The notes beneath the pieces were generated by a model, which was given only the letters and a program-made list of their open reading frames with translations, did no database searches and was not told the DNA's origin. 64,000 bases of DNA. Origin: Syntrophorhabdaceae bacterium. GTDB lineage: Bacteria > Desulfobacterota > Syntrophorhabdia > Syntrophorhabdales > Syntrophorhabdaceae. The stretch spans positions 1,088,001 through 1,152,000 of the forward strand of contig CAXXUO010000001.1 of NCBI GenBank assembly GCA_963666485.2, given 5' to 3'. Position 1 is the stretch's first letter; the number at the start of each line of letters is the position of its first letter. This document shows, in pieces, positions 19,881 through 51,616 of this stretch. The position numbers were made by a program, and so were the translations under genes.

Positions 19881-19915
19881 AGGGGCCCTCCGGTCCCGCC
19901 CTGTCCTGCGCAAGC

Positions 19916-21328: not shown

Positions 21329-21331
21329 TGT

Positions 21332-26140: not shown

Positions 26141-26182
26141 CCGGACCTCCTCGGGGCTAAGAATGGCGCGGGGCGGTCCCCG

Positions 26183-28231: not shown

Positions 28232-28249
28232 CGTTAACCCGGCCTCCCG

Positions 28250-30618: not shown

Positions 30619-33082
30619 GCCAGGCCCCCCGCATTGTCATGGTAACACGCGTACCATTGCTATTGGCGAGATGGAGGTCACCTTCGAGCTGTTCCACAAG
30701 CGTCATGACGAGCTTGAGCCCCAGGGATTCGGCGTTCCTGATGTCAAGGCCCTCGGGCAGGCCCACTCCATCGTCCGCAACGGTCAGGACCGTACCATTT
30801 TCACCGGACCTGAAGCCGACAAACACATTGCCCTGCCCCCTGCCCGGAAACGCGTGCTTGATCGCATTGGAAATGAGCTCGCTTATGATGAGACCGACGG
30901 GGACCATGGTATCAATATCAAGGAATGTTTCGTCAGAGTCAATAGTGTATTGCATATTATTCGCCATAACACCATAGGACCTGAACAGGTCCCGCAAGAG
31001 CTCCGCCGCATATTCACGGAAATGTATCCCGGACAGGTCGTCAGACTGGTACAGTTTTTGATGGACAAGCGCCATCGTCCTTACCCGTGACTGGCTGTCC
31101 CGGAATATCTCGAGCATCTTACCGTCTTTTATATGCACCGATTGCAGGCTCAGCAGGCTGGATATGATCTGCAGGTTGTTCTTGACCCGGTGATGGATCT
31201 CCTTGAGAAGGACCTCTTTTTCACCGAGCGAATCGCGCAGGCGGTCCTCGGACCTTTTCAAGTCGGTGATGTCCATGATGACACCCACCAATCCTTCAAT
31301 TTCTCCATTTTTCCCGAAAAAAGGCGCCTTGTGCGACATCAGATTGTGCCGGGCCCCGTCCGCATAGGGGATCGTGACCTCATATGTGTAGGGCTCTCCT
31401 GTGTCGAATACGACACCGTCTCCCGTCGTATTTATCTCCGCCACGTCCCGGGGCATGACGTCGAAAACGGTCTTGCCGGCGACAGCCTCCCGGGAAATCC
31501 CGAAAGCTTTTTCATACGCTTTGTTGCACCAGAGGTACCTGCCCCCGCGGTCTTTATAAAAGAGGGGAGCCGGCAGGGCATTTATCACACTTTCCAGGAG
31601 CAGGCGCTGTTTCTCGAGGGCCGCCTCCATCTGTTTGCGCGACGTTATGTCCCGGGCGGTCGCCAGGATGCAATATTCACCGTTCAGCGTGATGCGGTTC
31701 AGAAATACTTCGACGTCAAACAGCGACCCGTCGTGCGGTCGGCGGGCCTGCCATTCAAAATGGTGCGCGTGGCCCTGCAGGACGCGCTTCCAGATAGCCG
31801 TCAACCCGTCGCGGGATATGCCCGGCGCAGAATAATCCTCCACTATGGACAGGCCTGCGGCCTCGGCGCGGGTTACCCCGTACATTGCGAGCATCCGGTC
31901 GTTCACATCGATGATGCTGCCGTCACGCCGGTGAATGAATATCGCGTCGCTGATGCTGTCGAAAACGCTTTGAAGGGTCTCCTGCGAGCTTTGCAGGGCA
32001 ATTTTTGCCTCGTAATTCTCACGCTCCCTCTGCTCGAGCTGTTTGGCGGCACTGTTGAGAACGACGGCCAGTTCGTCGAGTTCGTCCCCTACCCGGGGTA
32101 TGTCGATCTTTGAGAAGTCGCCCAGGCCAAATTTTCGCGATGCCCGCCGCATTATATCGAATCGTTTCCCGATAGTTAATCTGCTGAACGCCCATGCGAT
32201 CACCAGGATAGCCAGGAAAGATGCCAGGAGAAGCCCGATGCCCGCAATAAATTCCCTGCGTGCCACGGTATTCAATTGGGAAACAGGGACCCCCACACGC
32301 ATATAGAGAAAAGGCCGGTCTTCCGCGGGGAGCGTGAACGTCCTGTAGGCGTAAAACCGTTTTGTCCCGTCAACGCCCGTCTCCAGGAAGGTGCCCGAGG
32401 CGGCAGGGCCGCTCATATGGCCCATCATGCTCCCGAGGTCCTGCCGGCCGGTATAATTTTGAGTATCAGGGTAACGGTACAGCCTTTTTCCGGCGTGATC
32501 GGTAAGGGCTATGATCGAACCTTCGGGGAGTTTTGCGATGGAAATCAGCTCGCCATACGTGTCAAGCTCGATGGCTGCAACGAGGACCCCCACCGCGTCA
32601 CCCCGGCTGTTTAATACAGGGTATGCAAAGTGGAGGCGGGGCCTTCCGTATGTCGCGCCCAGGACGAATTCCCCGACAGAGAATTTCTTCTTCGTCATGG
32701 CGTCCCGAAAGTATTTCCTTTCACTCAGGTCGACCTTGCGGATGGGAAGGGCCGATGCGATTATCGATCCCGCGGAATTGACGACGTAAATGTTCGCATA
32801 TGCGCTCTTTTCTGTCTGGACCTTTTTCAAAAGGTGTGTGGCGGCGGGGATATGCATGATACCGGGCGAATGAGACAGTGTGGAGAGCACCTGCTCGATC
32901 CCCATGATCAGGGTCTCGTTCTCGTGGCCTAAGAGATGGACCATCCTTTCCAGCTCGAATTCGGCCTGCGCACGGACATATTCGCCAATCTTCATCCCCA
33001 GGAGGCCAATGACGATGAGGCCGGGAACCGCGCTTATAAGGACAAGCACGACGATCCGGGTTCTTATTGACCGAAACCGCAT
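30608..33082 (-). CDS. Membrane sensor kinase: TM-Cache-like-TM-HAMP-PAS-PAS-HisKA_2
   Basis: Two TM helices, DLSERKYF Cache motif, [22 protein letters not shown]. Confidence 0.92.
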   Translation of the reverse strand: MRFRSIRTRIVVLVLISAVPGLIVIGLLGMKIGEYVRAQAEFELERMVHLLGHENETLIMGIEQVLSTLSHSPGIMHIPAATHLLKKVQTEKSAYANIYVVNSAGSIIASALPIRKVDLSERKYFRDAMTKKKFSVGEFVLGATYGRPRLHFAYPVLNSRGDAVGVLVAAIELDTYGELISIAKLPEGSIIALTDHAGKRLYRYPDTQNYTGRQDLGSMMGHMSGPAASGTFLETGVDGTKRFYAYRTFTLPAEDRPFLYMRVGVPVSQLNTVARREFIAGIGLLLASFLAILVIAWAFSRLTIGKRFDIMRRASRKFGLGDFSKIDIPRVGDELDELAVVLNSAAKQLEQRERENYEAKIALQSSQETLQSVFDSISDAIFIHRRDGSIIDVNDRMLAMYGVTRAEAAGLSIVEDYSAPGISRDGLTAIWKRVLQGHAHHFEWQARRPHDGSLFDVEVFLNRITLNGEYCILATARDITSRKQMEAALEKQRLLLESVINALPAPLFYKDRGGRYLWCNKAYEKAFGISREAVAGKTVFDVMPRDVAEINTTGDGVVFDTGEPYTYEVTIPYADGARHNLMSHKAPFFGKNGEIEGLVGVIMDITDLKRSEDRLRDSLGEKEVLLKEIHHRVKNNLQIISSLLSLQSVHIKDGKMLEIFRDSQSRVRTMALVHQKLYQSDDLSGIHFREYAAELLRDLFRSYGVMANNMQYTIDSDETFLDIDTMVPVGLIISELISNAIKHAFPGRGQGNVFVGFRSGENGTVLTVADDGVGLPEGLDIRNAESLGLKLVMTLVEQLEGDLHLANSNGTRVTMTMRGAWHEE

Positions 33083-33126
33083 TGTTCATGCCCCCGGGTA
33101 TCGTGATGGATCTTTCGGCATCAGGA

Positions 33127-33573
33127 TCATTCCCGCGCTGTGTTCGCTCTCACTATTGTCCGGCGAGGTGCTCTCTTCGCCGGGTGGAACCCGAGTTTCG
33201 CCAGTTCATCAGCAAGTTTCGCCTTGTGTATCGGTTTTACCAGGTAGCTCTCGCACTGCGCCCTGAATGATCTCATAATGTCCCGGAAATCGTCGAGGGC
33301 CGTGGTCATCATTACCTTGACACCATTCAGGCCCGTTATTCCCCTGCTCTCTTCCATGTTCCTGATCTTTTTGAGGACCTCCTGCCCGTCCATCCTCGGC
33401 ATCATGATGTCGAGGCAGACAAGGTCATAGGGTTGCCGGGAATTGAGGGCATATTCGAAGGCTTCGACGGCCTCTATCCCATCAACGCTCAGGTCGACCT
33501 TCCCATAGCCCGAGAGCATCTTCATCAGGATCTTGGCACTCGTGATGTCATCCTCGGCAATAAGTATTTTCAT
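33127..33573 (-). CDS. Single-domain response regulator (CheY-like), paralogue of 28250-28645
   Basis: [23 protein letters not shown]. Confidence 0.92.
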
Positions 33574-35140
33574 GAGCCCCTTCCTCCTTTTCATTCAGGG
33601 AATGTGCATTGAAACTGAGGCTGACGTTAAAGGTCGACCCGTTCCTGCCGTCGCTTACGACCCAGACATCGCCCCCCATCATCCGGACAAGCTCCTTGAC
33701 GATGGCCAGTCCGAGGCCTGTCCCGCCGTATTCACGCGTTGTCGAGGGGTCGGCCTGGGTGAATTTCTCGAAAATAATGCCCTGCTTATCTGACGGGATC
33801 CCTATCCCGGTATCCTGCACGGCGAAAAGCACCGGGACCTTGCCGTTCCCGTTCCCGCCCATATCCCGCGAGACCTTTCCATTGATCCGCGAGACCCTTA
33901 CGGAGACGGAGCCTTCCCGTGTGAATTTTATGGCGTTCCCGATGAGATTGAGCAATACCTGCCTTAACCTGACCGGATCGCCCCGAAGTATTTCCGGAAG
34001 TCCGGGATCGATGGCGTATTCGTAGGCGAGGTCCTTCCCGCGTGCCTTTGCCGAGAGAATGTTGACGCTCTCACTGACAACATTGCCCAGGCTGAAGTCT
34101 ATATCCTCGAGTTCGATCTTCTGGGCCTCGATCCTCGAATAATCGAGGATGTTGTTTATCAGCATCAACAGGGTGTTGGCACAACCGCCTATATCGCGGG
34201 CATACTCGGCCTGTTCGTCCGTGAGGTCAGTGTCGAAGAGCAGCTCGCTCATCCCGATGATCCCGTTGAGCGGTGTCCTGATCTCGTGGCTCATGTTCGC
34301 AAGGAACGCACCCTTCATCCTGCTTGCACTCTCCGCCATCTCCTTCGCGCGCCGCATTTCCCGCATGGCTTTTTTCCGCTCCGTCACGTCAAGCAGTGAC
34401 GCGATCAACTGCATTGTCCCCGGTATCCTGTTTATGGTCGCGATAATGTCCCGCAGGGAGCCGTCCCTCACCCTCACGGCGAGCTCCAGCTGTTTCGGCG
34501 AGGCCATGCCGTCATCCATGCAGGTTTTGAAATAACTCTTCATTTCCTCGCAATCCTTGTCGGAAGCAAGGCAGGCCGAAAATGAGGCACCCTCCACCTC
34601 GGGCCTTTTGTACCCGAGGTCCCGTTCAAATTCGCCGTTTACCCGGGACACGATCATATCGGGTTCGATGATGACCGTGGGGTTCCCCGTGTTCTCGAAC
34701 ATTGCCCTGTAGCGCTCCTCGGATGCCCTGAGCTTCAAGTCCATCGCATGGCGATATATGCCGATCTTTATGGCGATATCGAGCTCCTGGTCGTTGAAGG
34801 GCTTCACCAGGTAGCCGTAAGGGGCCGCGGTTTGCGCCCGCTCCACCGTCACGTCGTCTGCGAATGCCGTGAGAAAAATGAACGGTATGTCACGGGTGTT
34901 CTTGATGACGTTTGCCGTTTCGATCCCGTCCATGGTCCCCTTGAGCATGATGTCCATTAAAACGAGGTCCGGTGCCGCGGCATCTATCTTTTCGATCGCC
35001 TCCGGGCCGGACGCCGCGCTTCCGCAGATATGGTATCCAAGGATACCAAGCCTGTTCCTGATATCCATGGCTACTATTTTTTCGTCTTCAACGACGAATA
35101 TTTTCTTCCTGCCGCTTTGAGGAATGTTCTCTGAGATCAT
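33548..35140 (-). CDS. REC-PAS-HisKA-HATPase histidine kinase
   Basis: [27 protein letters not shown]; start uncertain. Confidence 0.92.
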
Positions 35141-35171
35141 GCCGGTCACGCCTTTTATGAAACAGTTAGCA

Positions 35172-35207
35172 TGTGCCCGCCGCCCTCCAAAAAGGGCGGC
35201 GGGCACA
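35172..35207. promoter_or_regulatory. 15-bp GC-rich hairpin after cheW (RNA stabiliser or attenuator)
   Basis: tgtgcccgccgccct-ccaaaa-agggcggcgggcaca; no clear U-tract on the coding strand. Confidence 0.7.
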
Positions 35208-35220
35208 AATTCGCTTTTGT

Positions 35221-35742
35221 CTATACAGCCATCTTCTTGTCTTTGCGGTCCTCCAGGGCGGCGCTCAGTTCCGTCACGAGGTCAATATCCTCCGTGGAGA
35301 AGACCTTGTCGATGTTGAGGATGATAATGAAAGCGTCGTCGCGCTTCCCCATTCCCTTGATGAATTCGGTCTTAAGCTGCGTTCCGATCTTGGGCGCGGG
35401 CTCTATCTGGTCAGGTTCCAGTTCGAAAACCTCCTGGACTGAATCGACAAGCGCGCCTATAATGGTCGTCTCGTTCTCGAACGTCACCTCGACCACGATG
35501 ATGCATGTGTTGATGGTCCTTTCCGTCCGGCTGAGCCCGAACTTGAGGCGCATGTCGAGCACCGGGACGACGCTCCCGCGCAGGTTGATCACCCCTCTCA
35601 TGAATTCAGGGGTCTTCGGGACCTTGGTCACCGTCGTGAATTCCAGTATCTCGCGGACATTTGCCACGTCGAGACCGAAGATCTCCTCGCTCAGTTTAAA
35701 TGTCAGGTACTGCCGTGTCTGTGTTATGCCGGTCACGCTCAT
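35221..35742 (-). CDS. cheW: Chemotaxis adaptor CheW
   Basis: [31 protein letters not shown]. Confidence 0.96.
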
Positions 35743-35753
35743 GGAGGGCCTCC

Positions 35754-38700
35754 TTAGAATCTCTCGAAGTCGTCGTCGAGATTGTCAGCCATGTCGATGT
35801 TGATGCCCGACCCTGACCACTGACCGTTGCCGTTCCTGCCGTCCTTCTTCGTTTTCTTCCCCGCTGCCGGTTCTGCTTTCGCTTTCGCCATCGCCTTCGG
35901 GGCCGCGTGTGCGTGCTGCATGGGCTTGCGGGCATTGAAATTCCGTGCGCCGGAACCGCTGTTCTCTACCCTGAAGAAAGCTATGGTGTCGAGCAGCTGG
36001 TTCGATTGCCCGGCAAGTTCCTCTGTCGTTGACGCGATCTGCTCCGCGGCGGATGCATTCTGCTGGATGACCTGGTCAAGCTGCTGGATGGCCCGGTTGA
36101 TCTGCTCCGCACCGGAGTTCTGCTCGTTGCAGGCAGCGTTGATCTCCTGGACAAGCTCCGCCGTTTTCTGGATATCCGGTACGATCCGTGTGAGCATCTC
36201 GCCGGCTTTTTCCGCAACGTCGACGCTGCTTGCAGACAGTTTGTTGATCTCGGCTGCAGCCGTCTGGCTTCTTTCCGCCAGCTTTCTTACTTCCGTTGCG
36301 ACAACCGCGAATCCTTTGCCGTGCTCACCGGCGCGCGCTGCTTCGATCGCCGCGTTGAGCGCCAGGAGGTTCGTCTGCCGTGCGATCTCTTCGATGATCG
36401 AGATCTTGTTCGCTATCTCCTTCATTGCCGCTACGGTCTCGGTGACGGCCCTTCCGCCTTCCTGCGCATCACCTGCCGTCTTCTGGGCGATCTTCTCGGT
36501 CTGCTGCGCGTTGTCGGCGTTCTGCTTGATGTTTGAAACCATCTGCTCCATCGAAGAGGAAACCTCTTCGGCGGATGCCGCCTGTGTGGATGCGCCTTCG
36601 GACATCTTCTGCGCACCGCTTGACATCTCCTGGCTTCCCGAGGCGACGTTTTCGGCCGCGCCCTTGACGTCATTGACGACGCCGGTCAGTTTGTCGACCA
36701 TGGAGGCGAGAGCCCTCATGAGTTCATCCTCGGGGGACCTTTCCCTGGCCGTGACGGTCAGGTTGCCGTTGGCTATTTCCTGTGCGAGCTTTGTCACTTC
36801 ATTCATCGCGTCGATCAGGACATTGAGGTTGTTCTTGATAACGTTGTACTGGCCTTTGTACTCATCGGAGATCTTGCCGGGGATATCACCTTTCGATATC
36901 CGTTCCACGTAGTCCGCCGTCACCATGAGCGGGTTGACGATGTTCGTGATCGTGTCGTTGACACCCGACACCAGCTTGTTCCACCCGCCGATGAAGAGGT
37001 CTGCGTTCGCCCTCTGGTCGAGCTGACCGTCCGCAGCCGCCTTGATGATCTTGTCGGTCTGCTGGAGAAGCTCGGTCATCATCTTCACGACCGCGTTGAG
37101 GTTGTTCTTGATAACGTTGTACTGTCCCTTGTAGACGTCGGTGATCTCCGGCGGGATGATGCCCTTCGATACCTTGTCCACGTAATCCGCCGTGACCATG
37201 AGCGGGTTGACGATGTTGGTCACAATTTCGTTGACGCCGAGGACGAGCTTCTTCCATCCTCCGATAAAGAGGTCGGCATCTGCCCGTTTGTCGAGTTCGC
37301 CGTCGGCAGCGGCCGTGATGACCTTGCCGGCCTCGGTGAGCAGGTTGTTCATGATATCGATGCAATTATTGAGGTTGTTCTTGATCTCGTTGAAGTCACC
37401 CTGGTATTCATCAGTGATCCTCTGCGGAATGTCGCCCTTCGAGATCCTGTCCACGTACTCCGCCGCCACGTTGAGAGGCCCGATAACCGCGTCGAGGGTT
37501 TCGTTGACGCCCTGGACGATCTTGCGATAGTCGCCCTGGTGCTTCGATGCGTCGGCCCTTGTCGCGAGCTTGCCTGCGACTGCCGCTTCGACGAGCAGGT
37601 TGGCGTCGGCCACGAGGGCGTTCATATTGTCGATGCAGTTGTTCAGGTTGTTCTTTATTTCGTTAAAATCGCCGTTGTAGGAATCGCTGATCCTCTGCGG
37701 GATGTCGCCCTTCGAGATCCTGTCCACGTACTCCGCCGCCACGTTGAGGGGCCCGATGACCGCATCGAGCGTGTCGTTGACGCCCTCGACGATCTTGCGG
37801 AAGTCTCCCTGGTGTTTCGATGCGTCGGCCCTGGTTGCGAGCTTGCCTTCTACCGCGGCCATCGCCAGTACATTCGCATCGGCCACGAGCAGGTTCACCG
37901 CTTCGATGCAGTTGTTCAGGTTGTTCTTTATTTCGTTAAAATCGCCGTTGTAGGAATCACTGATCGTCTGCGGGATGTCGCCCTTCGAGATCCTGTCCAC
38001 GTACTCCGCCGCCACGTTGAGGGGCCCGATGACCGCATCGAGGGTTTCGTTGAATCCCCGCATGAGTTTCTTGTACACGCCGGCGAGCTGGTCAGCGTCA
38101 GCCCGGGCGTCGAGCTTACCCTGTGTTGCCGCTGTTATCAGGACCCCCGTCTGGTCGACAAGTGTCGATATCGCGTCAATGCAGGTATTGAGGTTGTTCT
38201 TGATCTCGTTGAAATCACCGTTGTACTCGTCCGTGATCTTCTGCGGGATGTCGCCCTTCGAGATCCTGTCCACGTACTCGGCCGCCACGTTGAGAGGCCC
38301 GATGACCGCGTCGAGCGTGTCGTTCACGCCCTCAACGATCTTCCGGTATTCACCCTGGTGCCTCGACGCGTCAGCGCGGGTTGCGAGCTTGCCTTCCACC
38401 GCCGCCTTCGCCAGCATGCCTGTGTCGTTGATGAGGTTGTCGATCGTTTCCAGGCACCCGATGATAGCCGGAAGCAGATGGTCTTCTTCGCTTCTCTTGC
38501 CTACCTTTATCAGCTCGGGCAACTCCTTTGTATCGCCGAGGGCGATCTCGTTGATCTGGCGGGTCACGCCGCGGAGCCGTTCCCTCACCTCGTTGACCGA
38601 TTTTCCGATCGACGCGAAAACCCCCTGGTATACCCCTTCAACACTCTTGCTGTGGTCGTTGAGCGTCATCCTGTGGAGGACCGCGTCGGCCTCGACAAGG

Positions 38701-40073
38701 CCCTGCAGCCCGTCGATACAGTTGTTGAGGTTGTTCTTTATTTCATTGAAATCGCCGTTATATTCATCCGTGATCTTCTGGGGTATCTCGCCCTTCGAGA
38801 TCCGGTCCACGTACTCGGCCGCCACGTTGAGAGGCCCTATGACCGCATCGAGCGTCTCATTGACGCCCTGAACGATCTTCTGGTATTCACCCTGGTGCCT
38901 CGATGCGTCCGCGCGGGTCGCGAGCTTGCCTTCCACGGCCGCTTTTGCCAGCATGCCGGTGTCGTTGATGAGGTTGTCGATCGTTTCCATGCACCCGATA
39001 ACGGCGGGGAGAAGGCGGTCTTCGTCGCTTCTCTTGCCTACCTTTATCAGCTCGGGCAACTCCTTTGTATCGCCGAGGGCGATCTCGTTGATCTGGCGGG
39101 TCACGCCGAGAAGGCGATCCTTGACCTCATTGACGGCTTTCCCGATCGACGCGAAAACTCCCTGGTATACACCTTCAACAGATTTGGTGTGGTCGTTGAG
39201 GGTCATCCTGTGGAGGACCGCGTCGGCCTCGACAAGGCCCTGCAGCCCGTCGATGCAGTTGTTGAGGTTGTTCTTGATCTCGTTAAAATCGCCGTTGTAG
39301 GAATCTGTGATCTTCTGGGGTATCTCGCCCTTCGAGATCCTGTCCACATACTCGGCCGCGACGTTGAGAGGTCCGATGACGGAGTCGAGGGTGTCGTTCA
39401 CGCCCTCAACGATCTTGCGATAGTCGCCCTGGTGCTTCGACGCGTCGGCGCGGGTCGCGAGCTTGCCTTCCACGGCAGCCTGGGCCAGCATGTTGGCATC
39501 CTTTACCAGTTCCTTCAGATTGGTCCGGAGGTTCTCCAGGTTTTCGTTGATAAATGCCTTCTTGCCGGGGAATTTCTCGAGTTCCGCTTCGAAATTGCCC
39601 CGTGCGAATTCGGCGACACACGCCATGGCTTTCTTCTTTACCGATATGTGGCCGTTCACCATGTCGTTGACGCCGCGTGCCATCACCTGGAATTCACCCT
39701 TGAACTTCGCAACATCCATGACGACATCGATGTCGCCGAGGTCGTGCTGCCTGCTCATGTTCGTCATCTCGGTGACAAGGTCGAGAAGGTTCTTCTTGAG
39801 CATGTCCAGCTTCTCGTTGGCCACCGCCTGTTTGCCCGGCAACCTGTCGAGGGATTTTGCAAGGTCGCCCTCGGCATAACTGCCCACGACGTCGAGGATC
39901 CTGACGGCATTGTCCACGTGGAGCTTTGTCACCTGGTTCACGTAATCGGCCATCTGCCTGAATTCGTCATCAAGGCCGGCTGTCGGTATGAAATGATCGA
40001 TATCGCCCGCCTTGTGACTGTCGAGCATCGTTTTGAGCTCGCCCATAAAAATGTCTTTTGCCTTGTTGCCCAT
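35754..40073 (-). CDS. Soluble methyl-accepting chemotaxis protein with long poly-HAMP array and C-terminal pentapeptide
   Basis: [27 protein letters not shown] hairpin tip; ~91-aa repeats; no TM; ends DFERF. Confidence 0.96.
36780..39500 (-). repeat. Intragenic tandem repeats of 273 bp and 537 bp in the MCP gene
   Basis: [16 protein letters not shown] x6 plus [10 protein letters not shown] x2; DNA anchors at 38281/38818/39355 and 36825/37098. Confidence 0.92.
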
Positions 40074-40145
40074 ACTATACCCTCCTTCCTTTCTGTATTA
40101 TTTCAAGATCTTTTATCCTGGTTCCGGTAAGCAATGCCTCACCTC

Positions 40146-40748
40146 CTAAAAGCACAATAAACGTGCGGTTTTTACGTTCCTTAAGGTCGTGGAGATCATA
40201 TCAGTGATTCCTTTATTGCTCGGGTGCTCGTGGCCTGCGAACAGGTGCCGGATCTTCAGGCTGCTGAGCAGCTCCAGGGTCTCGACGAATTCCGGCGCAT
40301 ACGTCCCGCCGACCGACAGTATCCGCAGGGATGTATCGCCCGAAAAAAGGACCCCTTCTTCCTCGCAATAGATGCATATAGAATCGCTCGAATGTCCCGG
40401 CGCGTGGATGATACGGCACATGCGATCGGCAATATGGATGAACTGGCCATCGGACAACAACTCGTCAACGTGCGGCCCATCGGAGAATGCATACACCTTC
40501 GGGTGGTAAAGCCTTACGATCTCGGGAAGGTTCCCCATATGGTCGAAGTGGTTGTGCGTGAGGATCACCTGGTCCACGCGCCTTTTCCCCACGCCAGTCG
40601 GTGCCTGCTCGATCGCCTGGAAGACCGAAGGGTCGCTCCCGACATCGATGAGCGTGTTCACGTCCTCCAACCGGCTCCACGTACCGAGCGCCAGGTAGGC
40701 GTTTGAGGAATAGACGGTATTGTCGGGATTGAGCAGCTGCACTTTCAT
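40146..40748 (-). CDS. Metallo-beta-lactamase-fold hydrolase
   Basis: LIDVG, THNHFDH (HxHxDH), PGHS, FSGD, AGH; start overlaps the cheR stop. Confidence 0.93.
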   Translation of the reverse strand: MKVQLLNPDNTVYSSNAYLALGTWSRLEDVNTLIDVGSDPSVFQAIEQAPTGVGKRRVDQVILTHNHFDHMGNLPEIVRLYHPKVYAFSDGPHVDELLSDGQFIHIADRMCRIIHAPGHSSDSICIYCEEEGVLFSGDTSLRILSVGGTYAPEFVETLELLSSLKIRHLFAGHEHPSNKGITDMISTTLRNVKTARLLCF

Positions 40749-41359
40749 TTCACGGCCCCGTTCTTCTTGTGTATCTGGCCGTCTCCGACGACGTGTTCGA
40801 ACAGGGGGCGCATCTCTTCCGGCATCTTCTGTGTCTGCTCGGTCGCAAAATAACCGCCGGCAGTCAGGGCATTGTGAAACATCCTGATGACCTCGATCCT
40901 TTCGCTCTGCTGGAAATGAAGTAGCACGTTCTTGCACATGATGAACGTGAAATCGCTGCCCACGGGCTTGAGCGACAACAGGTTATGCTTCATGAACTGG
41001 ACGCTTCTCTTGATGGGGTCGATCACCTCGTAAAACCCTTTTTCATCAGCAGGCTTGAAATACTTCTCGAACAGGTCTCTGGGTGCTCTCTGGAGCTCTT
41101 CGTAGCTGTACACACCCTTCCGGATTATTTCGCCGAACGTGTCCTGGTCGTCGATATCCGATGCAACGATCGTGAGGTTCTTGAAGGCAAAATACCCCAT
41201 CTTCTCGGCAAGCATGATGGCGAGTGAGTACGGCTCGGGGCCCATCGCGCAGCCGGCGTCCCAGACCCTGACCTTGCTTCTGCCCATCGAGAAAGGGACG
41301 ACGTGCTTTATCGCGAGCTCGAGTATCTGCATGTCCCTGAAAAAGAAAGTGAACGCCAT
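40745..41359 (-). CDS. cheR: CheR-like SAM-dependent methyltransferase lacking the N-terminal domain
   Basis: Begins at TFFFRD; RVWDAGCAMGPEPYSLA, ASDID, HNLL, CKNVLLHF. Confidence 0.88.
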   Translation of the reverse strand: MAFTFFFRDMQILELAIKHVVPFSMGRSKVRVWDAGCAMGPEPYSLAIMLAEKMGYFAFKNLTIVASDIDDQDTFGEIIRKGVYSYEELQRAPRDLFEKYFKPADEKGFYEVIDPIKRSVQFMKHNLLSLKPVGSDFTFIMCKNVLLHFQQSERIEVIRMFHNALTAGGYFATEQTQKMPEEMRPLFEHVVGDGQIHKKNGAVK

Positions 41360-43509
41360 TAGTGCACCATTCTCCGGGCTTCGTCTATCTCGACGCACTG
41401 GATTATCTTTCCCGCATCCACGATGAGGGCCACGTTGCCGTCACCTAAGATCGTCGCCCCCGATATCCCCTCGACATCCTTGTATATCTTGCCGAGGTTC
41501 TTGATAACGGTCTGATGTTCACCGATCACGTTGTCGACGACGAACCCGACCCGCGAACCGTTCACGCCGGTGACGACTATCTGTTCGATATCCGGCAGCT
41601 CACCGTTTATCTCAAATTCCTTGCGAAGCCTTATATAGGGGACGAGCTCGCCGCGGATCGGGGCCATGTTCCGCCCGTTCGATCTCCTGACGTCCTCCCG
41701 GGTGAGCTCAACGCATTCCTCTACTATGGAGAGCGGCAGTATGTAGCGGTCATCCCCCACCCCGACGAGGAGGCCCTCGATAATGGCGAGCGTGAGCGGC
41801 AGCCTTACCGTCACGGACGTCCCCCTGCCCGGTGCGCTCTCAACCTCGATCGTCCCGCGCAGCGAATCGATGGACCTCTTCACGACATCCATGCCGACGC
41901 CTCTTCCGGAGACGTTGGTCACCTTTGGGGCTGTCGAGAAGCCCGGCATGAAGATAAGCCCGAAGAGTTCTTTATCCGTCATCTCGGCGTTCGGGGCGAT
42001 AAGCCCTCTTTCGATCGCCTTCGACCGGATCGCCTGCGTGTCGAGGCCCTTGCCGTCATCGACTATCGTGATGAGGACACTGGCGCCCGAGTGAATGGCC
42101 GAGAGCTTGATGGTGCCCGCACGGTCTTTTCCCGCGGCCTGCCTGTCGGCCGGTGTCTCGATGCCGTGGTCGATGCTGTTGCGTATGATGTGAACGAGCG
42201 GGTCGTTGAGTTTCTCGATGACCGTCTTGTCGAGCTCTGTCTCGGCGCCTTCCGTGACGAGCTCTATTTCTTTTCCCAGTTCCTGGGACAGGTCACGGAC
42301 GAGGCGCTTGAACCGCCCGAACGTCGTGCCGATGGGCAGCATCCTGATGTTCAGCGTGTTGTCCCTGAGCTCCGATGTAAGCCTTTCGATCTCTTCCGCA
42401 ACGGAGATGAACTCATTGTCTTCCGTCCCGGACGCGATCTGCGTCAGGCGCGCCTGCACGGTGACAAGTTCACCGACAAGGTTCACGAGGATATCCAGTT
42501 TTTCGGCAGGTACGCGGATGCTCGTCGCGCTTTCCTTGTCCTGGCCTGCCTGGCGTGTCATCTTGACCTGGTTTTGCTCCGCCAGGGCCGACATGACCTT
42601 GTCAGGAGAGACGAGGCCTTTTTCGACGAGCATTTCGCCGATCATTTTCTTGTCCCGCAGCACATCATGGAGGTCTTTCTCCGAGATGTCGCCCTTTTCG
42701 ATCAGGATCTGCCCCAGCTTCTTGTATTCCGTATCGCCATCGAAACCCCTGTTATCGATGACATCGATATGTATCTCGGCGCTGTCCTCGATAAATATGA
42801 ATACGTCCCTGATGACATCGACGCTCCTGTCCGTCGTTAAGATGACGTCGAAATAGGCATAGCAGGACTCGGCGTCGAGCTCATCGAGTGAGGGGACCCT
42901 GTCGAGCTGGGCTATCACCCTGCATTCCCCCAGTTCTTTAAGTTCGGACAGAATGCGCAGGGGATTGCTCCCGATCCGGAAGAGATCGGCCCCCGGGATG
43001 AAGCGGATCCGGTATGTAAGGCTTGCCGATTCCGGGTCAGGCGACGTCCCCGGCGCTTCGCCGGGCCCATCCGGGAGCTTTTCTGCAGCGGGGGACCCCG
43101 GTGCACATGCTTCTTCATCGTCTTTTTCCAGGAGCTTCTTGAAGGCTTGAACGATCTCGCCGGCATCGATCTCAAGCTGGGCCTCGTCACCGGGGGCCGG
43201 GTCGAGCATTTTTTTTATCTGGTCCCGCCCTTTGAGCGTTAAGCTGATGAGGTGAGAGGACACGCGCATCTGCCCGGAACGCACCAGGTCAAAGACCGTT
43301 TCTATCTCGTGGGTGAAGTGTGCAATGTCATCGAACCCGAACATCGCACCCGAACCTTTTATAGTGTGCATGGACCTGAAAACGCGGCCCACCAGGTCCA
43401 TATCATCAGGGTTCTCTTCGAGTTCGAGAAGGGCGATCTCGAGGTCCGCAAGGAGTTCCTGGGCCTCTTCCCGGTATGCGTCAGAGTAATTACTGTCAGT
43501 CTTCGTCAT
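41359..43509 (-). CDS. cheA: Chemotaxis histidine kinase CheA
   Basis: FRSMHTIKG P1, HIIRNSIDHG, GFSTA..SGRGVGMDVV, LPLTLAI, GATILGDG. Confidence 0.97.
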   Translation of the reverse strand: MTKTDSNYSDAYREEAQELLADLEIALLELEENPDDMDLVGRVFRSMHTIKGSGAMFGFDDIAHFTHEIETVFDLVRSGQMRVSSHLISLTLKGRDQIKKMLDPAPGDEAQLEIDAGEIVQAFKKLLEKDDEEACAPGSPAAEKLPDGPGEAPGTSPDPESASLTYRIRFIPGADLFRIGSNPLRILSELKELGECRVIAQLDRVPSLDELDAESCYAYFDVILTTDRSVDVIRDVFIFIEDSAEIHIDVIDNRGFDGDTEYKKLGQILIEKGDISEKDLHDVLRDKKMIGEMLVEKGLVSPDKVMSALAEQNQVKMTRQAGQDKESATSIRVPAEKLDILVNLVGELVTVQARLTQIASGTEDNEFISVAEEIERLTSELRDNTLNIRMLPIGTTFGRFKRLVRDLSQELGKEIELVTEGAETELDKTVIEKLNDPLVHIIRNSIDHGIETPADRQAAGKDRAGTIKLSAIHSGASVLITIVDDGKGLDTQAIRSKAIERGLIAPNAEMTDKELFGLIFMPGFSTAPKVTNVSGRGVGMDVVKRSIDSLRGTIEVESAPGRGTSVTVRLPLTLAIIEGLLVGVGDDRYILPLSIVEECVELTREDVRRSNGRNMAPIRGELVPYIRLRKEFEINGELPDIEQIVVTGVNGSRVGFVVDNVIGEHQTVIKNLGKIYKDVEGISGATILGDGNVALIVDAGKIIQCVEIDEARRMVH

Positions 43510-43513
43510 GGCC

Positions 43514-44278
43514 TCATCTCCCCGCTGCTGCCGCAGCGCCGTCATACCAGAGGCAGTCTGCCGGCTTCTCCGCCACGCATCCCGCGTGACGGGAAAAACC
43601 GGACTCCCTGACACTGTCTGTAAATGCCGCAGATCTGTGCCCGTCGAGTGATAGCGCTATTTTGCGCTGTTCACAGGTCCTGTGCGCCGCACACAAGACC
43701 TGGAGCCCCGCCACATCCGCCTCTGACAGGGACTCGACATTGAACATGACCGTTTGTGCACCGGACAGGATCTCTGTGAGGGCCCTGGCGATGGCCGCGG
43801 CCTTGTCGATCGTCAGGCTGCCGGTGAAATAGACGGTGCGCGTCCCGTTTGCACTCTCGACCCGCATGTCGTCTGCAAGCTGCTGCCGCTCCTCGATCAT
43901 TTTCTCCACCCTTAGCGTCTCGAACTTGTTCAATGAATCTTTCAGTATCCTGGCGGATACCGGTTTCTCGAAATACTCGCTGGCCCCGAGCGCATAGGCC
44001 TCCTGCATTGTTGAGGCGTTGCCGTGCCCCGTAATGATGATCACGTAGGCGGCCGGCGATCTCTTCCTGACAAGCTTTAAAACCTCGAAGCCGCCTTCCT
44101 TCATGGTGCCCGAGAGCCTTAAGTCCGTGATGACGCAAAAATAGTCTTTCTGATCGATGAATTCTTTTGCCTGATCGAGCGTTTCCGCTATATCGACCTT
44201 TGTTTCCTTGTTTTCCAGGGATTTCTTGAATCCCAGCAATATGTCGCTTTCATCATCAACAATGAGGATATTTTTCAT
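43514..44278 (-). CDS. Response regulator REC fused to a STAS domain
   Basis: VDDE/ITDLRL/FEKP receiver; GSLTI..EADVAGLQVLCAAH STAS. Confidence 0.87.
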   Translation of the reverse strand: MKNILIVDDESDILLGFKKSLENKETKVDIAETLDQAKEFIDQKDYFCVITDLRLSGTMKEGGFEVLKLVRKRSPAAYVIIITGHGNASTMQEAYALGASEYFEKPVSARILKDSLNKFETLRVEKMIEERQQLADDMRVESANGTRTVYFTGSLTIDKAAAIARALTEILSGAQTVMFNVESLSEADVAGLQVLCAAHRTCEQRKIALSLDGHRSAAFTDSVRESGFSRHAGCVAEKPADCLWYDGAAAAAGR

Positions 44279-44358
44279 AGCCAGCCCCTTAATGGTCCGT
44301 GTGAACCTGAAGATCAATCATGGGAAACACCATCATCATGGTCGCGGACTAGAACAGG

Positions 44359-44373
44359 GCAAGAAATATGCCA
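44359..44373 (-). promoter_or_regulatory. sigma54 (-24/-12) promoter of the che sub-operon
   Basis: Minus strand TGGCATATTTCTTGC (GG-N10-GC). Confidence 0.85.
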
Positions 44374-44437
44374 GAGATTTTTGTCGTTGTAATATCTGGA
44401 TTTTATTTGATTAGTTTAATTCGGCGCACAGCTGATA

Positions 44438-44475
44438 TGTTTCAGGTGAAACAGAAATGTTTCACCTGTGAGACA
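44438..44475. promoter_or_regulatory. Tandem palindromic enhancer sites (putative bEBP UAS)
   Basis: TGTTTCAGGTGAAACA-gaaa-TGTTTCACCTGTGAGACA. Confidence 0.75.
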
Positions 44476-44480
44476 AGAGG

Positions 44481-45773
44481 TCACTTCGGCTCTTTATTTT
44501 TTTTTCGATAGAGCGTTGCGCGGGAGATCCCGAGCGACCGGGCTGCCTTGGCCATGTTGCCGCCGCTTTGCCGTATGGCGTCGTCTATGAGCCGGTCTTC
44601 CTGGGGCGGGCTGTCCGATGCCTTGAACTGGGGTTCGATAAAGAAATGCTCCGCCCCGAGCAGCGATCCGCCGGAAAGAAGGACCGCCCGTTCGAGGACG
44701 TTCTTCATCTCCCTCATGTTGCCGGGCCAATGGTAGGCGCGCATCTCCTCCCGGACGCTTGCGGGCAGCTTCAGGTGCCCCATGTTCATCTGCCCGAGAA
44801 AATACCGGGTGATCGCGTCAATATCCTGGACCCGGGAGCGCAAGGGCGGAATGGCGATGGGGAACACAAATATCCGGTAATACAGGTCCTGCCGGAATGC
44901 GCCCTTTCTCGTCTCCTCGGCCAGGTCCTTGTTCGTTGCGCAGATGAGGCGGAAATTGCTCTGCCGTGTCCGTACGTCGCCCAACCGGCGGAATTGCTTC
45001 TCCTCGATCACCTTGAGAAGCTGGGCCTGTACCAAAAGGTCCATGTCGCCGATCTCGTCGAGGAAGAGGGTCCCCTTATCGGCATATTCTATGAGGCCCA
45101 CGCGGTCCTGGGATGCCGACGTAAATGCACCCTTCGTGTGTCCGAAAAGCTCACTCGCGAGAAGGTCCCCCCTTAGGCCCGAGCAATTGACCTCGACGAA
45201 GGGTGCCTGACTTCTCCGGCTTCCCTCGTGGATCCATCGTGCGAGGACACCTTTACCCGTCCCTGTCTCGCCGGAGATCATGAGGATCGAATCGTTGTCG
45301 CATGCAATAGCGGCGAGCCTCTCGACCTTGCTCATCTCCGGCCCTGTGCCGAAAAATGGCGTGCCTTTCTTTGCAAGGCGCTGGGCCACGTGATGGTCTC
45401 TTCTTAACGAACCGAACTCTATCGCTTTTTTGAGGGACACCTCGAGTTCGGCCATATCGACCGGTTTTGTCAGGAAGTGGTCCGCCCCCCTGCGCATTGC
45501 CTCGACGGCCGTAGGTATGTCTCCCAACCCCGTTATAACGATAAGCGCAATATCGGGCCTTTCGGAGCGCGCCTCGGCGATCCAGTCTATACCGTTGCCG
45601 TCGGGAAGATTGAGATCGAGCAGGATACCGTCAAATGTCCGGGAATTGAGAAGCTCCCTCGCCTCGCTCAAACTTGCCGCCACCTCCACGTCATAACCCG
45701 TCTTGCTCAGGTACCGGTTGAAGGCAAACTGAACGGCATCGTCATCGTCGACGACCAGGACGAGCGGTTTCAT
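44481..45773 (-). CDS. sigma54-dependent NtrC-family response regulator
   Basis: REC, GETGTGKG, ELFGHTKGAFTSA, LFLDEI, WPGNMRE, Fis-type HTH. Confidence 0.96.
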   Translation of the reverse strand: MKPLVLVVDDDDAVQFAFNRYLSKTGYDVEVAASLSEARELLNSRTFDGILLDLNLPDGNGIDWIAEARSERPDIALIVITGLGDIPTAVEAMRRGADHFLTKPVDMAELEVSLKKAIEFGSLRRDHHVAQRLAKKGTPFFGTGPEMSKVERLAAIACDNDSILMISGETGTGKGVLARWIHEGSRRSQAPFVEVNCSGLRGDLLASELFGHTKGAFTSASQDRVGLIEYADKGTLFLDEIGDMDLLVQAQLLKVIEEKQFRRLGDVRTRQSNFRLICATNKDLAEETRKGAFRQDLYYRIFVFPIAIPPLRSRVQDIDAITRYFLGQMNMGHLKLPASVREEMRAYHWPGNMREMKNVLERAVLLSGGSLLGAEHFFIEPQFKASDSPPQEDRLIDDAIRQSGGNMAKAARSLGISRATLYRKKNKEPK

Positions 45774-47248
45774 AATGAACCTCCCCTGTAGGCGGGAAGA
45801 CCGATCTCAACGGTGCATCCGGGCCCCGGGTCATTGTTGCGCACCGAAACGTTCCCTCCCATTGATTCCACGAAATGCTTAACAATGCTCAGGCCAAGCC
45901 CTGTTCCTCCCCGGCGCGTCGTAAAAAATGGTTCGAATATCTTGTCGAGGTTCTGCTGCGCGATGCCCGTTCCCGTGTCGTGGAAGGATATGGCCAGATG
46001 GCCGTCCTGCCGTTCATTGAGCGCGATCCTGATGTCGCTGCCCTTTTCGCTGTGATGGACGGCATTGTCGAGGAGGTTGATGAATACCTGCTGCAGGCGG
46101 GCGCTGTCCGCCATGACAAGCTTGTCTGTGATGGCCGGTGAGGATTCAAGCTGCACCGTGTAATTATGCGATACGTCTGTCTCATTCCACAGGTTGATGG
46201 TGCTCCTGCAGATATTTTCGATCGATTCCGGCTGGATGCTCGCTGACTGGAGGGGTTTACCGAGGTCGAGCAGGTCTTTCATGAGGCGTGAGAGCCTGTT
46301 GACCTGGCTTTTGATATGAACAAGGTAGGGGCCGTATTCCGTGTCCTCGCCGATATCCTGAAATAGCGCCTCCGTTATTGCGAGTATGGCGTTGAGCGGA
46401 TTGCGCACTTCGTGCGCCACGTTGGCGGCGATCTGCCCGAAAACCTTCATCTCGCGTGCGTATTCCAGTTGTTTTTCCATTTCCTGCCGGTCCGTCACGT
46501 CCCTGAAGACAACGACAGCACCGGACGCTTTTCCTGTTTCATCTTTGATTTGGTCTATATTGCCCTCGATCGATATCAGGTGGCCATCGCATGCTTCGAG
46601 AACGCTGCCTTCGGGGAATACCGAAAAGCCTCCGTCGCCGGCATCACCCCCCGGGACCTCGAGGGGCTCCCCGCCGTCACCGGCAAGGATGCGAAAGGCC
46701 TGCGACACGGGGATTCCCTTGGCCTCTTCGAACTTCCATCCCGTCAATTGTTCGGCAATGGTGTTCATGAGAACGACCTTTCCGTCGATATCAGAGGCGA
46801 TGACCCCGTCGCCGATGCTGTTCAATGTGGTTGCCAGCCATCTTTCATTCTCCTTTAGCCTTTTCACGATCGCGTGCTTGTACAGGGCCATTTCCACAGT
46901 GGAATGCAGTTCGCGAATATTGAATGGTTTGAGGAGATAGCCAAAGGGCTCGGTCACCTTCGCCCTCTCCAGGGTCTTTTGATCAGCGTACGCCGTAAGG
47001 TATACAATCGGGACATCCATTTCGTCCTTCACGATCATCGCGGATTCGATCCCGTCGATGTGACCCTTCAGCCTGATATCCATGAGAATGAGATCAGGAA
47101 TTTCACGCCTCGCGGTCTCGATCGCTGCCCGGCCTGACACGGCAGTCCATACCGGCCCGTAGCCGAGGGTCTGCAGCATCTTCTGGATGTCCCTGGCAAC
47201 GATAACCTCATCTTCGACGATCAGAATCTTTACCTGTTTCTCGATCAC
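45770..47248 (-). CDS. REC-PAS-HisKA-HATPase kinase, likely cognate of the bEBP
   Basis: VAHEVRNPLN, PFFTTRRGGTGLGL; overlaps the bEBP start. Confidence 0.92.
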   Translation of the reverse strand: MIEKQVKILIVEDEVIVARDIQKMLQTLGYGPVWTAVSGRAAIETARREIPDLILMDIRLKGHIDGIESAMIVKDEMDVPIVYLTAYADQKTLERAKVTEPFGYLLKPFNIRELHSTVEMALYKHAIVKRLKENERWLATTLNSIGDGVIASDIDGKVVLMNTIAEQLTGWKFEEAKGIPVSQAFRILAGDGGEPLEVPGGDAGDGGFSVFPEGSVLEACDGHLISIEGNIDQIKDETGKASGAVVVFRDVTDRQEMEKQLEYAREMKVFGQIAANVAHEVRNPLNAILAITEALFQDIGEDTEYGPYLVHIKSQVNRLSRLMKDLLDLGKPLQSASIQPESIENICRSTINLWNETDVSHNYTVQLESSPAITDKLVMADSARLQQVFINLLDNAVHHSEKGSDIRIALNERQDGHLAISFHDTGTGIAQQNLDKIFEPFFTTRRGGTGLGLSIVKHFVESMGGNVSVRNNDPGPGCTVEIGLPAYRGGSL

Positions 47249-47269
47249 TTTAAGCCACCTTAAGGGTAC

Positions 47270-49366
47270 TTACATATTTACTTTAAATGTGATAACGAAC
47301 TCGGTCCCCGGGTCCTTTTTCAGTTCGATCGAGCCTTCAAGCTGATCGACAAGGATCAGCACGAGCTGAAGGCCCATTGAGGCATATTCCTCGAACCTGT
47401 CAGCCGGGCCGGCGAACCCTATCCCATTGTCTTTCACGGACAATATGCACGCATCGCCATCCCGCGTGAACCGTATCGAGATCAAACCTTCGTGTCCCGA
47501 CGGGAAGGCGTGTTTTATCGCGTTGGACACAAGCTCGTTTATGATGAGCCCGCAGGGGATTATGGCATCCAGCGTAAGTTCGATATCCGACGCCGAATGC
47601 TCGATCCTGAGTCGGGAATTATCGACGCCGTAGCTCACGCACAGGTCCCCGACCAGGCTCGCTATATAGCCGGCGATATTGATCTCCGCCAGGTTCTTCG
47701 ATTGATACAGCTTGTCGTGTATAAGGGACATGGACCGGATGCGATTCTGGCTTTCCCGGAATATCTCGTGTACCTTTTCGTCCTCGATGTGCGCTGCCTG
47801 GAGGCTGTACATGCTGGATATCACCTGGAGGTTGTTCTTTACCCGATGGTGTATCTCCCTGAGCAGCACCTCTTTCTCCCTCAGGGCCGCCATGATCTGC
47901 GATTCGGCGAGCCTTCTCTCCGTGATATCGTAAATGACCATGATGGCGCAGTTCCTTTTGTCCACAATGAACGGGCTTACGCTGAAGATGGACCAGGTTT
48001 TGCGTATCCCGCCTTTACTGTCGTCATATATCATCGCCTCTTTATCACGGACGGGATTCGCCCTGACGAGGGCCTCTTTGATGGCGGAAAAAAAAGGACA
48101 GGTGGGGCATTCAGGGGAATTGCCGCACCCGGCAGGATCTTGAAGCCGGTTAGGGCACGCGATGATATCCCCGAACCGCTTGCGGTTAAGGTCGAATATC
48201 GATCTCCCGAAAAGGTTCTCGGCAGCGGGATTTGCAAAGATGACCTGCTCCCGGTCGTCGATCACAAGCATGGCGACAGGCGTCGAGATGAGCATCGAGC
48301 TTAAGTTGTCCCGTTCCTGCTCAACGGCCCTTGCCAGCATTTCAGCCCTTTCCTCCGATAATTTCCGCTTGGTGATGTCGGTGAAGACCGTTATGGAGCC
48401 GGCGAACGCCCCATCGTGATCGATGAGGCTTTTCGAGGATATGATGCACCACACGACAGGGCCGTCCCGGTGGCGCATCTTCGCTTCATATATCTCGGAC
48501 CTTCCCATTCTGCGCTCTCTCAACTTGTTTGAGAGACCGGGAATATCATCCGGGAAGACGAAGATCTCAGGCGTTCTCCCGATCATTTCTTCTGGAGAAT
48601 AGCCGGTCAGCTGCGTCATCGCGGGATTGACAAAGGTTATCACATGGTCCCGGTCAAGCTGCACTATGCCTTCAAGCGTGGTCTCGAAGAGTGTCCGGTA
48701 GAGCGCTTCGCTTTTGCGCAGCTGATCTTCAGAGATCTCAAGCTTTTCCTTCGCCTGCCTCTGTGCTATGCCTATCACCATCGCGTCCGTGATCCGTTCG
48801 AGAAATTCGATGATGTCCGGTGAAAAAAAATCCCGGGCGTGATTGTTTACCTGGACAAGGCCGAAGGGGACGCCGCCGAGCCGCAGGGGGAAAAGGCCCA
48901 CGGATTCATAGCCCATGCTGTTGCACCGGTTCCGCGTCCTGGTCTGCCGGTCTTCGTCGCTCGTCGATGCAAGCAGCTCGGTCGTGCAATTGGAGACGAA
49001 GCTGCCGTATGGCGTAAAGAAAGGCAGGGAAGGGTCGACGCGGCCGAGGATGATATTTCCGCACATGCATTCGATATACGCATTTCCGTCACTGTCGCGC
49101 AGCAGGGCGCCCGTGTCGTCGCGGGCGCACAGGGAGGTCTCGAGAAGGAGGAAATCCTGGGGGAACCCGTGCGATACATAATACGGGAAATCCTCGCCGT
49201 CCTTAAGGCGGATCCCCATCGCGTCGCAGGCGAGCCAGCCTTTGAGGAACTCACAGATTTTCCTGATGAGATCGGGCATGCCGTCGTCCTTGTTAAGGAA
49301 GGACATAACGGTGATCGTGGCTCTCTGGATGTCCTCGAGCCGGGTCGTTGCGCTGCGGTCACTCAT
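47270..49366 (-). CDS. Cys-rich GAF-PAS-PAS sensor kinase (HisKA_2 type)
   Basis: [32 protein letters not shown]. Confidence 0.92.
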   Translation of the reverse strand: MSDRSATTRLEDIQRATITVMSFLNKDDGMPDLIRKICEFLKGWLACDAMGIRLKDGEDFPYYVSHGFPQDFLLLETSLCARDDTGALLRDSDGNAYIECMCGNIILGRVDPSLPFFTPYGSFVSNCTTELLASTSDEDRQTRTRNRCNSMGYESVGLFPLRLGGVPFGLVQVNNHARDFFSPDIIEFLERITDAMVIGIAQRQAKEKLEISEDQLRKSEALYRTLFETTLEGIVQLDRDHVITFVNPAMTQLTGYSPEEMIGRTPEIFVFPDDIPGLSNKLRERRMGRSEIYEAKMRHRDGPVVWCIISSKSLIDHDGAFAGSITVFTDITKRKLSEERAEMLARAVEQERDNLSSMLISTPVAMLVIDDREQVIFANPAAENLFGRSIFDLNRKRFGDIIACPNRLQDPAGCGNSPECPTCPFFSAIKEALVRANPVRDKEAMIYDDSKGGIRKTWSIFSVSPFIVDKRNCAIMVIYDITERRLAESQIMAALREKEVLLREIHHRVKNNLQVISSMYSLQAAHIEDEKVHEIFRESQNRIRSMSLIHDKLYQSKNLAEINIAGYIASLVGDLCVSYGVDNSRLRIEHSASDIELTLDAIIPCGLIINELVSNAIKHAFPSGHEGLISIRFTRDGDACILSVKDNGIGFAGPADRFEEYASMGLQLVLILVDQLEGSIELKKDPGTEFVITFKVNM

Positions 49367-51509: not shown

Positions 51510-51616
51510 GTAGGTCCTCCTTAAGATCGGCTCTAAATTTAATACTTTTTGGTGCCGTTTTTCAAATTTTTTGGTAAGATTGAGCGTTAACGAACCGGGG
51601 GACACCAGGAGGAAAA

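Follow-up and report, generated by a model that had tools for sequence, protein, structure and literature searches.

A short CheR-like protein and a metallo-beta-lactamase-fold hydrolase form an accessory module linked to poly-HAMP chemoreceptors

What is a CheR-like protein for in a chemosensory cluster that has no cheB and encodes a hydrolase of the metallo-beta-lactamase (MBL) fold next to it? The question is raised by a 64,000-nucleotide stretch of a Syntrophorhabdaceae genome (assembly GCA_963666485.2, contig CAXXUO010000001.1, positions 1,088,001 to 1,152,000), called here the window, in which a minus-strand cluster runs in the order REC-STAS, cheA, cheR*, MBL hydrolase, poly-HAMP chemoreceptor (methyl-accepting chemotaxis protein, MCP) and cheW. 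CheR* denotes the short CheR-fold protein, a predicted binder of S-adenosylmethionine (SAM), and MBL its neighbor. The preliminary description of this DNA proposed that MBL may stand in for CheB or may destroy a small-molecule product of CheR*, and that either would define a new chemosensory class. We find that CheR* and MBL form an accessory module that accompanies receptors bearing an array of di-HAMP repeats, whatever their sensor domain, and that is carried in addition to CheR/CheB, not instead of them.

A gene pair and its receptors

Using local profiles, we annotated the best 79 of 436 MBL loci from a species-genome collection, where the family has 436 relatives, and, from metagenomes, the 80 best of the CheR* loci, which number at least 536; because the best-scoring loci were taken, the sample leans toward closer relatives. 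CheR* lies within 1.2 kb of MBL in 72 of the 76 testable MBL loci (three of the 79 were too short, and the 72 include two CheR* matches that are weak or broken), and MBL stands beside CheR* in 55 of the 65 testable CheR* loci (15 of the 80 were too short). One of the ten misses, L087, is an in-frame CheR*-MBL fusion. Spacing within the pair is tight, with 46 of 103 pairs overlapping and 32 of 103 within 30 nt of each other; the order could not be called in 22 further pairs. Judged by record names, carriers are spread over Thermodesulfobacteriota, Nitrospirota, Bacteroidota/Ignavibacteria, Bacillota, Chloroflexota, Acidobacteriota, Spirochaetota, and methanogenic archaea.

The receptors that accompany the pair share one feature. 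A HAMP array is encoded within 3 kb of the pair in 52/65 and 44/47 testable loci of two locus sets; in ten loci of the first set that lack an array, the pair stands alone amid housekeeping genes, and in all five such cases tested the genome encodes HAMP_2 proteins at another site. Thus, a conserved module exists, as the preliminary description had anticipated in expecting MBL to co-occur with a short CheR and poly-HAMP receptors, and we are highly confident that it is a widespread accessory one. Whole-genome profiles were compared in three samples, drawn from the phylum (151 genomes), the family (68), and an archaeal order (101), with thresholds set in this analysis. In these samples, respectively, CheR* is found in 5, 9, and 14 genomes, MBL in 4, 7, and 13, and the array in 13, 15, and 28. 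Every genome with MBL has CheR* (4/4, 7/7, and 13/13; 21 distinct genomes), and the array is present in 4/5, 8/9, and 13/14 genomes with CheR* versus 9/146, 7/59, and 15/87 without it. In the three CheR* genomes lacking an array, the loci lie at contig ends.

Linked receptors vary in sensor and membrane anchoring: by crude hydropathy, the 52 examined comprise 27 transmembrane proteins, 9 transmembrane proteins with PAS, 13 soluble proteins, and 3 soluble proteins with PAS (Fisher tests overstate, because the genomes are related). What they have in common is a 91-residue di-HAMP unit. In a 49-row alignment of this unit, the second HAMP is nearly invariant, and E56 and E80 are conserved at 90% or above. 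The repeat motif is enriched in linked proteins (107/131, versus 6/16 unlinked). Distances between CheR* proteins track those between HAMP units with the signaling domain controlled for (partial r 0.32) and do not track those of CheA (-0.03), a weak correlation that, like the other distance correlations here, is inflated by kinship. A Cys residue ends many repeat units (262/500 linked, 11/35 unlinked) and is a possible redox or modification site.

The pair sits in STAS-type clusters, CheA-receiver hybrid clusters, Bacillota clusters, and archaeal MCP-cheW strings. Since it is inserted in several cluster types, it is not a chemosensory class of its own, and the proposal of a new class is not supported. 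The pair is apparently undescribed: a literature search returned no description of it, although subscription papers were largely beyond its reach and the ODP lists of Muok et al. 2019/PMC7319448 could include these MBLs. Searches of a plasmid collection found no CheR*, and atlas searches returned generic CheR and MBL clusters only. Within the genus sampled, none of 18 other genomes has CheR*, MBL, or the array, a pattern that suggests recent gain or repeated loss.

Several loci carry further genes beside the pair. Among loci L001 to L187, a minority have extra partners, namely one GNAT family in nine loci, a deacetylase-like family in six, and a second methyltransferase in three; two proteins, P0246 and P0331, are CheR*-GNAT fusions. 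An extended string of CheR*, second methyltransferase, MBL, deacetylase-like protein, and GNAT occurs in L112 (10612-13033), L146, and L151. In the genome studied here, neither the GNAT nor the second-methyltransferase profile found a match. Diverged CheR* paralogues that retain the His described below, some of them in tandem, lie beside poly-HAMP MCP-cheW strings in two archaeal genomes (L192, L193, L194, and L195). In one genome group, purH adjoins the pair, with or without receptors (L008, L012, L014, L026, L056, L061, L065, L077, and L142), and genes for four-helix "23S rRNA intervening sequence" proteins stand beside or between cheR* and MBL in L004 (7776-8132), L009 (7407-7790), and L085 (4303-4662). 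Two candidate fusions were rejected: P0241, the sole return of a search for long MBL fusions (409-2000 aa), resembles an MBL with a frameshift and PAS sequence attached, and P0314, in which CheR* is followed by a receptor start, looks like frameshift read-through.

The cluster in the window and the location of its CheB

The features of the window cluster are as follows.

43514..44278, minus strand: REC-STAS fusion, 254 aa (Pfam Response_reg and STAS_2), gap-free in strain X5
41359..43509, minus strand: cheA histidine kinase (Pfam Hpt, H-kinase_dim for dimerisation, HATPase_c, and CheW)
40745..41359, minus strand: CheR*, short CheR-fold protein predicted to bind SAM, 204 aa (Pfam CheR catalytic domain only)
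40146..40748, minus strand: MBL-fold metallo-hydrolase, 200 aa (Pfam Lactamase_B; HxHxDH at residues 65-70)
35754..40073, minus strand: soluble poly-HAMP chemoreceptor (MCP), 1439 aa (Pfam, eight HAMP_2 stretches and MCPsignal)
37353..37898, minus strand: two 91-residue di-HAMP repeat units, the array reference and candidate target region of the module
35221..35742, minus strand: cheW (Pfam CheW, 128 bits)
35172..35207, no strand assigned: GC-rich hairpin of 15 pairs after cheW, at the site where the related clusters L001, L002, L166, and L197 run on into cheR-cheD-cheB

Open reading frame coordinates and Pfam matches bear out the anatomy first reported for this cluster: the gene order, the overlaps of 1 nt (cheA/cheR*) and 4 nt (cheR*/MBL), the intact HxHxDH of MBL, the reduction of CheR* to its catalytic domain, and the lack of cheB, cheD, cheC, cheX, and cheZ in the window. 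In genome-wide searches, every match to CheB (4), CheD (3), and CheX (3) falls outside the window, and CheC gave none; CheZ matched none of the 30 window open reading frames in the Pfam scan and was not searched genome-wide. Contigs from run X5, which derives from a related strain in another study, span the junction from cheW through the hairpin to the neighboring kinase (34283-36363) and, with 0 gaps, the stretch from REC-STAS to MBL (39940-45991). Because they cross both stretches, the arrangement does not stem from misassembly, and an assembly gap as the reason for the missing cheB was rejected.

The missing enzymes have counterparts elsewhere. The genome holds four CheB, three CheD, and, apart from CheR*, four CheR matches, among them a cognate-type cheR-cheB pair on another contig (C3:243710-245708; CheR at C3:243710, CheB at C3:244500). 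This CheB is 70-72% identical to the CheBs of two related clusters, L001 and L002, versus 43-55% for two other REC-CheBs compared, and the accompanying CheR is 50-54% identical to the CheRs of L001 and L002 and groups with them in a quick tree. Two other cheA-MCP-cheW clusters of the same genome, at C3:215852 and C8:150111, lack cheR-cheB and also lack MBL. The three related cheA clusters of this genome are thus all without cheR-cheB (the other two span C3:215852-220402 and C8:148909-156531), and the cognate-type pair is held by a cheA-less locus (C3:241512-245708). The adaptation enzymes of this locus are probably shared among the cheA clusters of the genome.

Related clusters point the same way. 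The preliminary description expected MBL to be anti-correlated with cheB and named retention of cheB in orthologous clusters as grounds for refutation; such retention is what was found. Both genes and flanks of 9 kb are available in 34 loci, 23 of which bear cheA; of these 23, cheB is present in 20 and full-length cheR in 21, and the three without cheB are multi-receptor clusters that reach the end of the available stretch. A second cut, requiring 8 kb downstream and a HAMP receptor, gives cheB in 25/39 loci and neither cheB nor full cheR in 12/39, and CheB is encoded in 10/10 tested genomes drawn from loci without adjacent cheB. The same-family genomes G151 and G307 retain cheR-cheD-cheB after cheW, although they may overlap the loci already named and are not independent. 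Hence most of the well-flanked relatives keep cheB in the cluster, this genome encodes a cognate-type CheR/CheB in trans, and the idea that MBL accounts for the missing cheB of the window is not supported.

The receptor of this cluster has no transmembrane segment by crude hydropathy and no sensor domain recognized by Pfam. It carries three canonical methylation motifs and ends in xFxxF, which fits the pentapeptide motif xF/YxxF/Y. Its signaling region is about 16 residues shorter than the Tar/Tcp profiles and of 34H length; a heptad-class proxy for receptors is rough and supports only that lengths differ. The cluster is therefore a 34H-receptor chemosensory cluster without a cheR-cheD-cheB tail in cis; we presume it to be F8-like from gene order and receptor length, partly following the Wuichet and Zhulin scheme. 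The xF/YxxF/Y pentapeptide has been associated with 34H receptors and a CheR group particular to them (PMC2577667), and the Geobacter "E. coli-like type 2" (PMC2577667) and F8 (PMC7184735) clusters share with ours STAS, cheA, a 34H xFxxF receptor, and cheW. Relatives run on into cheR-cheD-cheB, in contrast to the window cluster, which lacks these genes in cis, has REC fused to STAS, and carries the CheR*-MBL insert. The accessible parts of these accounts do not mention this insert, and "lactamase" occurs 0 times in that of PMC2577667.

Other features of the cluster and its surroundings deserve a record. REC and STAS are separate genes in relatives, all 41 STAS-labeled open reading frames in loci L001 to L187 being STAS alone, and the window has no single CheY gene between STAS and cheA. 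CheA contains an MshEN-like motif for binding cyclic di-GMP at 42568-42642 (NF053729, 44.1 bits, cut-off 38). About 13 kinases and receivers flank the cluster (17922-35206 and 44481-49366), including five HisKA_2-type kinases, hybrid kinases, and a sigma-54 activator. The preliminary description envisaged output to kinases rather than flagella; FliG is encoded in the genome.

The CheR* and MBL proteins

CheR* matches the CheR catalytic domain (PF01739, 130 bits) and gives no match to the N-terminal domain (PF03705, CheR_N). In CheR, that domain faces the receptor methylation helix, and E129 and D154 bind SAM. A pseudogene or frameshift as the source of the shortness was rejected, since 149 of 150 family members share the same N-terminal motif and none of the 150 matches a local CheR_N profile. 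The protein starts just ahead of the SAM-binding linker, its T4 corresponding to Salmonella T94, and it retains equivalents of E129 and D154. The acceptor side is probably altered: H148 replaces Y235 and a Lys replaces R230, each in 150/150, where 39/39 canonical CheRs of the same loci have Tyr at the former position, and D34 is acidic in 146/150 where 36/39 canonical CheRs have Ser. Of the two catalytic residues named for CheR, R98 and Y235 (PMC3447774), the first is retained as R8 in 150/150.

The predicted fold (pLDDT 91) has TM-scores of 0.81-0.83 to CheR and 0.5 or below to small-molecule methyltransferases, the top ten Foldseek hits are all CheR chains, and the beta-subdomain is kept. 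The beta-loop is two residues shorter than that of Salmonella, a statement that rests on a separate comparison, as the regular expression for the loop failed on 62/150 CheR* and 20/39 canonical sequences. In a quick tree of 43 versus 25 rows, CheR* forms one side of a long branch against canonical CheR with support 100. Compared with canonical CheR/CheB (Salmonella 1AF7/1BC5, B. subtilis 5FTW, and P. aeruginosa CheR1 5XLX), CheR* thus shares the catalytic fold and beta-subdomain and differs in lacking the N-terminal domain, branching on its own, occurring beside canonical CheR/CheB, and being partnered with MBL. The CheW-CheR-like protein of F2 spirochaetes is likewise a second, altered CheR domain beside a normal CheR; it is part of a CheW fusion in which neither catalytic residue survives, whereas CheR* is free-standing and keeps the Arg (bioRxiv 2020.03.11.986844).

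MBL has the features of an intact binuclear metallo-hydrolase. Its ligands H65, H67, D69, H70, H119, D138, and H173 are each kept in 130-131 of 131 family members, and the predicted fold (pLDDT 95) is nearest to YcbL (2XF4), LACTB2 (4AD9), and PqsE (2Q0J), with Z 18-19.5 and root-mean-square deviations of 2.4-3.2 over 174-187 residues; glyoxalase II is also among the nearest folds. With these glyoxalase II-like hydrolases MBL shares the fold and binuclear ligand set, at about 22% identity, and it is set apart by the family-specific invariant residues Y13, Y18, G22, G52, and K55 and by its chemosensory context. It scores far below the cut-off for GloB (TIGR03413, 65 versus 200.8 bits). A second MBL-fold gene of the window (50865-51605, Lactamase_B 108 bits) falls outside the chemosensory MBL family, which has one match in this genome.

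What the pair may do at the HAMP array

We propose that canonical CheR and CheB, tethered by the C-terminal pentapeptide, would carry out ordinary adaptation at the glutamates of the signaling domain. Since CheR* lacks the helix-facing domain and has a remodeled acceptor site, it would methylate another target. This predicted SAM binder would most likely write on a conserved residue of the HAMP repeat, with E56 or E80 of the unit as candidates, and the binuclear MBL would hydrolyze the product. The array would thereby have a writer/eraser cycle of its own, second to that of CheR/CheB and independent of phosphorylation, by which signal passage along the HAMP repeats would be tuned. We give this full mechanism a probability of roughly 0.4. 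Prediction of a complex of HAMP dimer, MBL, SAM, and CheR* scored 0.31 and 0.02 against a mark of 0.32, with controls not folded, and speaks neither for nor against the proposal. A bolder version, which we regard as doubtful, holds that in poly-HAMP receptors of many anaerobes and methanogens a further layer of covalent, reversible control acts away from the classical methylation helices, in which the His-type CheR writes on the array, MBL erases, some lineages add an acetylation cycle of GNAT and deacetylase, and the status of SAM and acetyl-CoA sets the output.

Several observations weigh against this mechanism. Nine of the 65 testable CheR* loci have no MBL, and such clusters would have no eraser. 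Arrays occur without CheR* in 9, 7, and 15 genomes of the three samples and can thus do without the module, and the profile used for these counts (A3) was built from CheR*-linked receptors and thus favors the association. The repeat motif was rejected as a CheR*-specific signature, being enriched and not specific, as the 6/16 unlinked carriers attest. For MBL, distances do not follow those of HAMP (partial r 0.07, p 0.19) and follow those of CheR* weakly (0.21). As its catalytic Y235 is replaced, CheR* may lack protein methylation activity altogether. Hydrolases of small molecules or RNA are the closest fold neighbors of MBL, and we know of no protein methylesterase with this fold.

The alternative that survives best is a small-molecule module, a branch that the preliminary description also raised, less probable in our estimate than the HAMP cycle and still a serious contender. 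CheR* would methylate a metabolite, MBL would hydrolyze it or a related ester or thioester, GNAT and deacetylase would add and remove acetyl groups where present, and the product or the liganded enzymes would signal via the HAMP array. His in place of Tyr and the acidic D34 suggest a changed acceptor, and the fold neighbors YcbL, LACTB2, PqsE, and glyoxalase II, the GNAT, deacetylase-like, and second-methyltransferase genes of some loci, the two CheR*-GNAT fusions, and the ten pairs standing alone among housekeeping genes all fit such chemistry. However, among the loci examined, genes for transporters or biosynthesis do not recur as neighbors of the pair, CheR* keeps the beta-subdomain and fold of CheR, far from those of small-molecule methyltransferases, and this genome shows no match to the GNAT or second-methyltransferase profile.

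Alternatively, and somewhat less probably again, both proteins could be non-catalytic sensors or scaffolds, with CheR* reporting SAM or S-adenosylhomocysteine by binding the array and MBL acting as a metal or oxygen sensor in the style of ODP. ODP, an oxygen-binding di-iron protein, is a precedent for an MBL-fold sensor coupled to soluble receptors; like our MBL, it is a stand-alone MBL-fold protein encoded beside a chemoreceptor gene in bacteria and archaea (PMC6978683 and PMC7319448). The CheW-CheR-like protein of spirochaetes, with altered R/Y residues, serves as a structural component (bioRxiv 2020.03.11.986844). The ODP-type context, a sensor-less soluble receptor as neighbor, holds in the window, whose receptor has no recognized sensor domain, but only 13/52 of the linked receptors are soluble and free of PAS. 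By record name, most carriers are anaerobes, and a hemerythrin gene follows MBL in L101. Against this, 36/52 linked receptors are transmembrane and 12 have PAS, so that inputs are not lacking, and a sensor acting in trans was rejected as a general rule. Unlike ODP, whose metal site is altered with the third His of motif 2 replaced (PMC7785958), MBL keeps H65, H67, and H70 in a full HxHxDH, is paired with CheR*, and accompanies poly-HAMP receptors, most of which bring sensors of their own. It also falls below the ODP cut-off (PF19583, 24.7 versus 27.2 bits), ODP ranks 34th among its fold matches (Z 15.7 versus 19.5), and the R98 equivalent of CheR* is kept in 150/150.

Two further explanations are very improbable. 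Mere passenger genes would fit the patchy spread and the stand-alone pairs; yet the two genes stay neighbors in different phyla and in archaea, under several gene orders, while fusions occur, genome profiles are nested, and duplicated CheR* paralogues again lie beside poly-HAMP receptors. Replacement of CheB or CheD by MBL at canonical methylation sites in a CheB-free class, to which the cheB- and cheD-less window and the 12/39 loci lend some color, is contradicted by the cheB and cheR of related clusters, the CheB of all ten genomes tested, the CheB at C3:244500, and the two other clusters here that lack both cheR-cheB and MBL.

For annotation, the lesson is that a cluster without cheB may simply use a CheB in trans, and that databases label CheR* as "CheR". 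The proposed HAMP-array cycle is cheaply testable, as it concerns small soluble proteins of a well-bounded family with nameable candidate sites. Receptor adaptation is taught as the work of CheR and CheB, with CheD, and a second pair acting at the HAMP array would add a layer of control. If the proposal is true, the MBL eraser is a protein demethylase unrelated to CheB, and the second pair would give a function to long poly-HAMP arrays.

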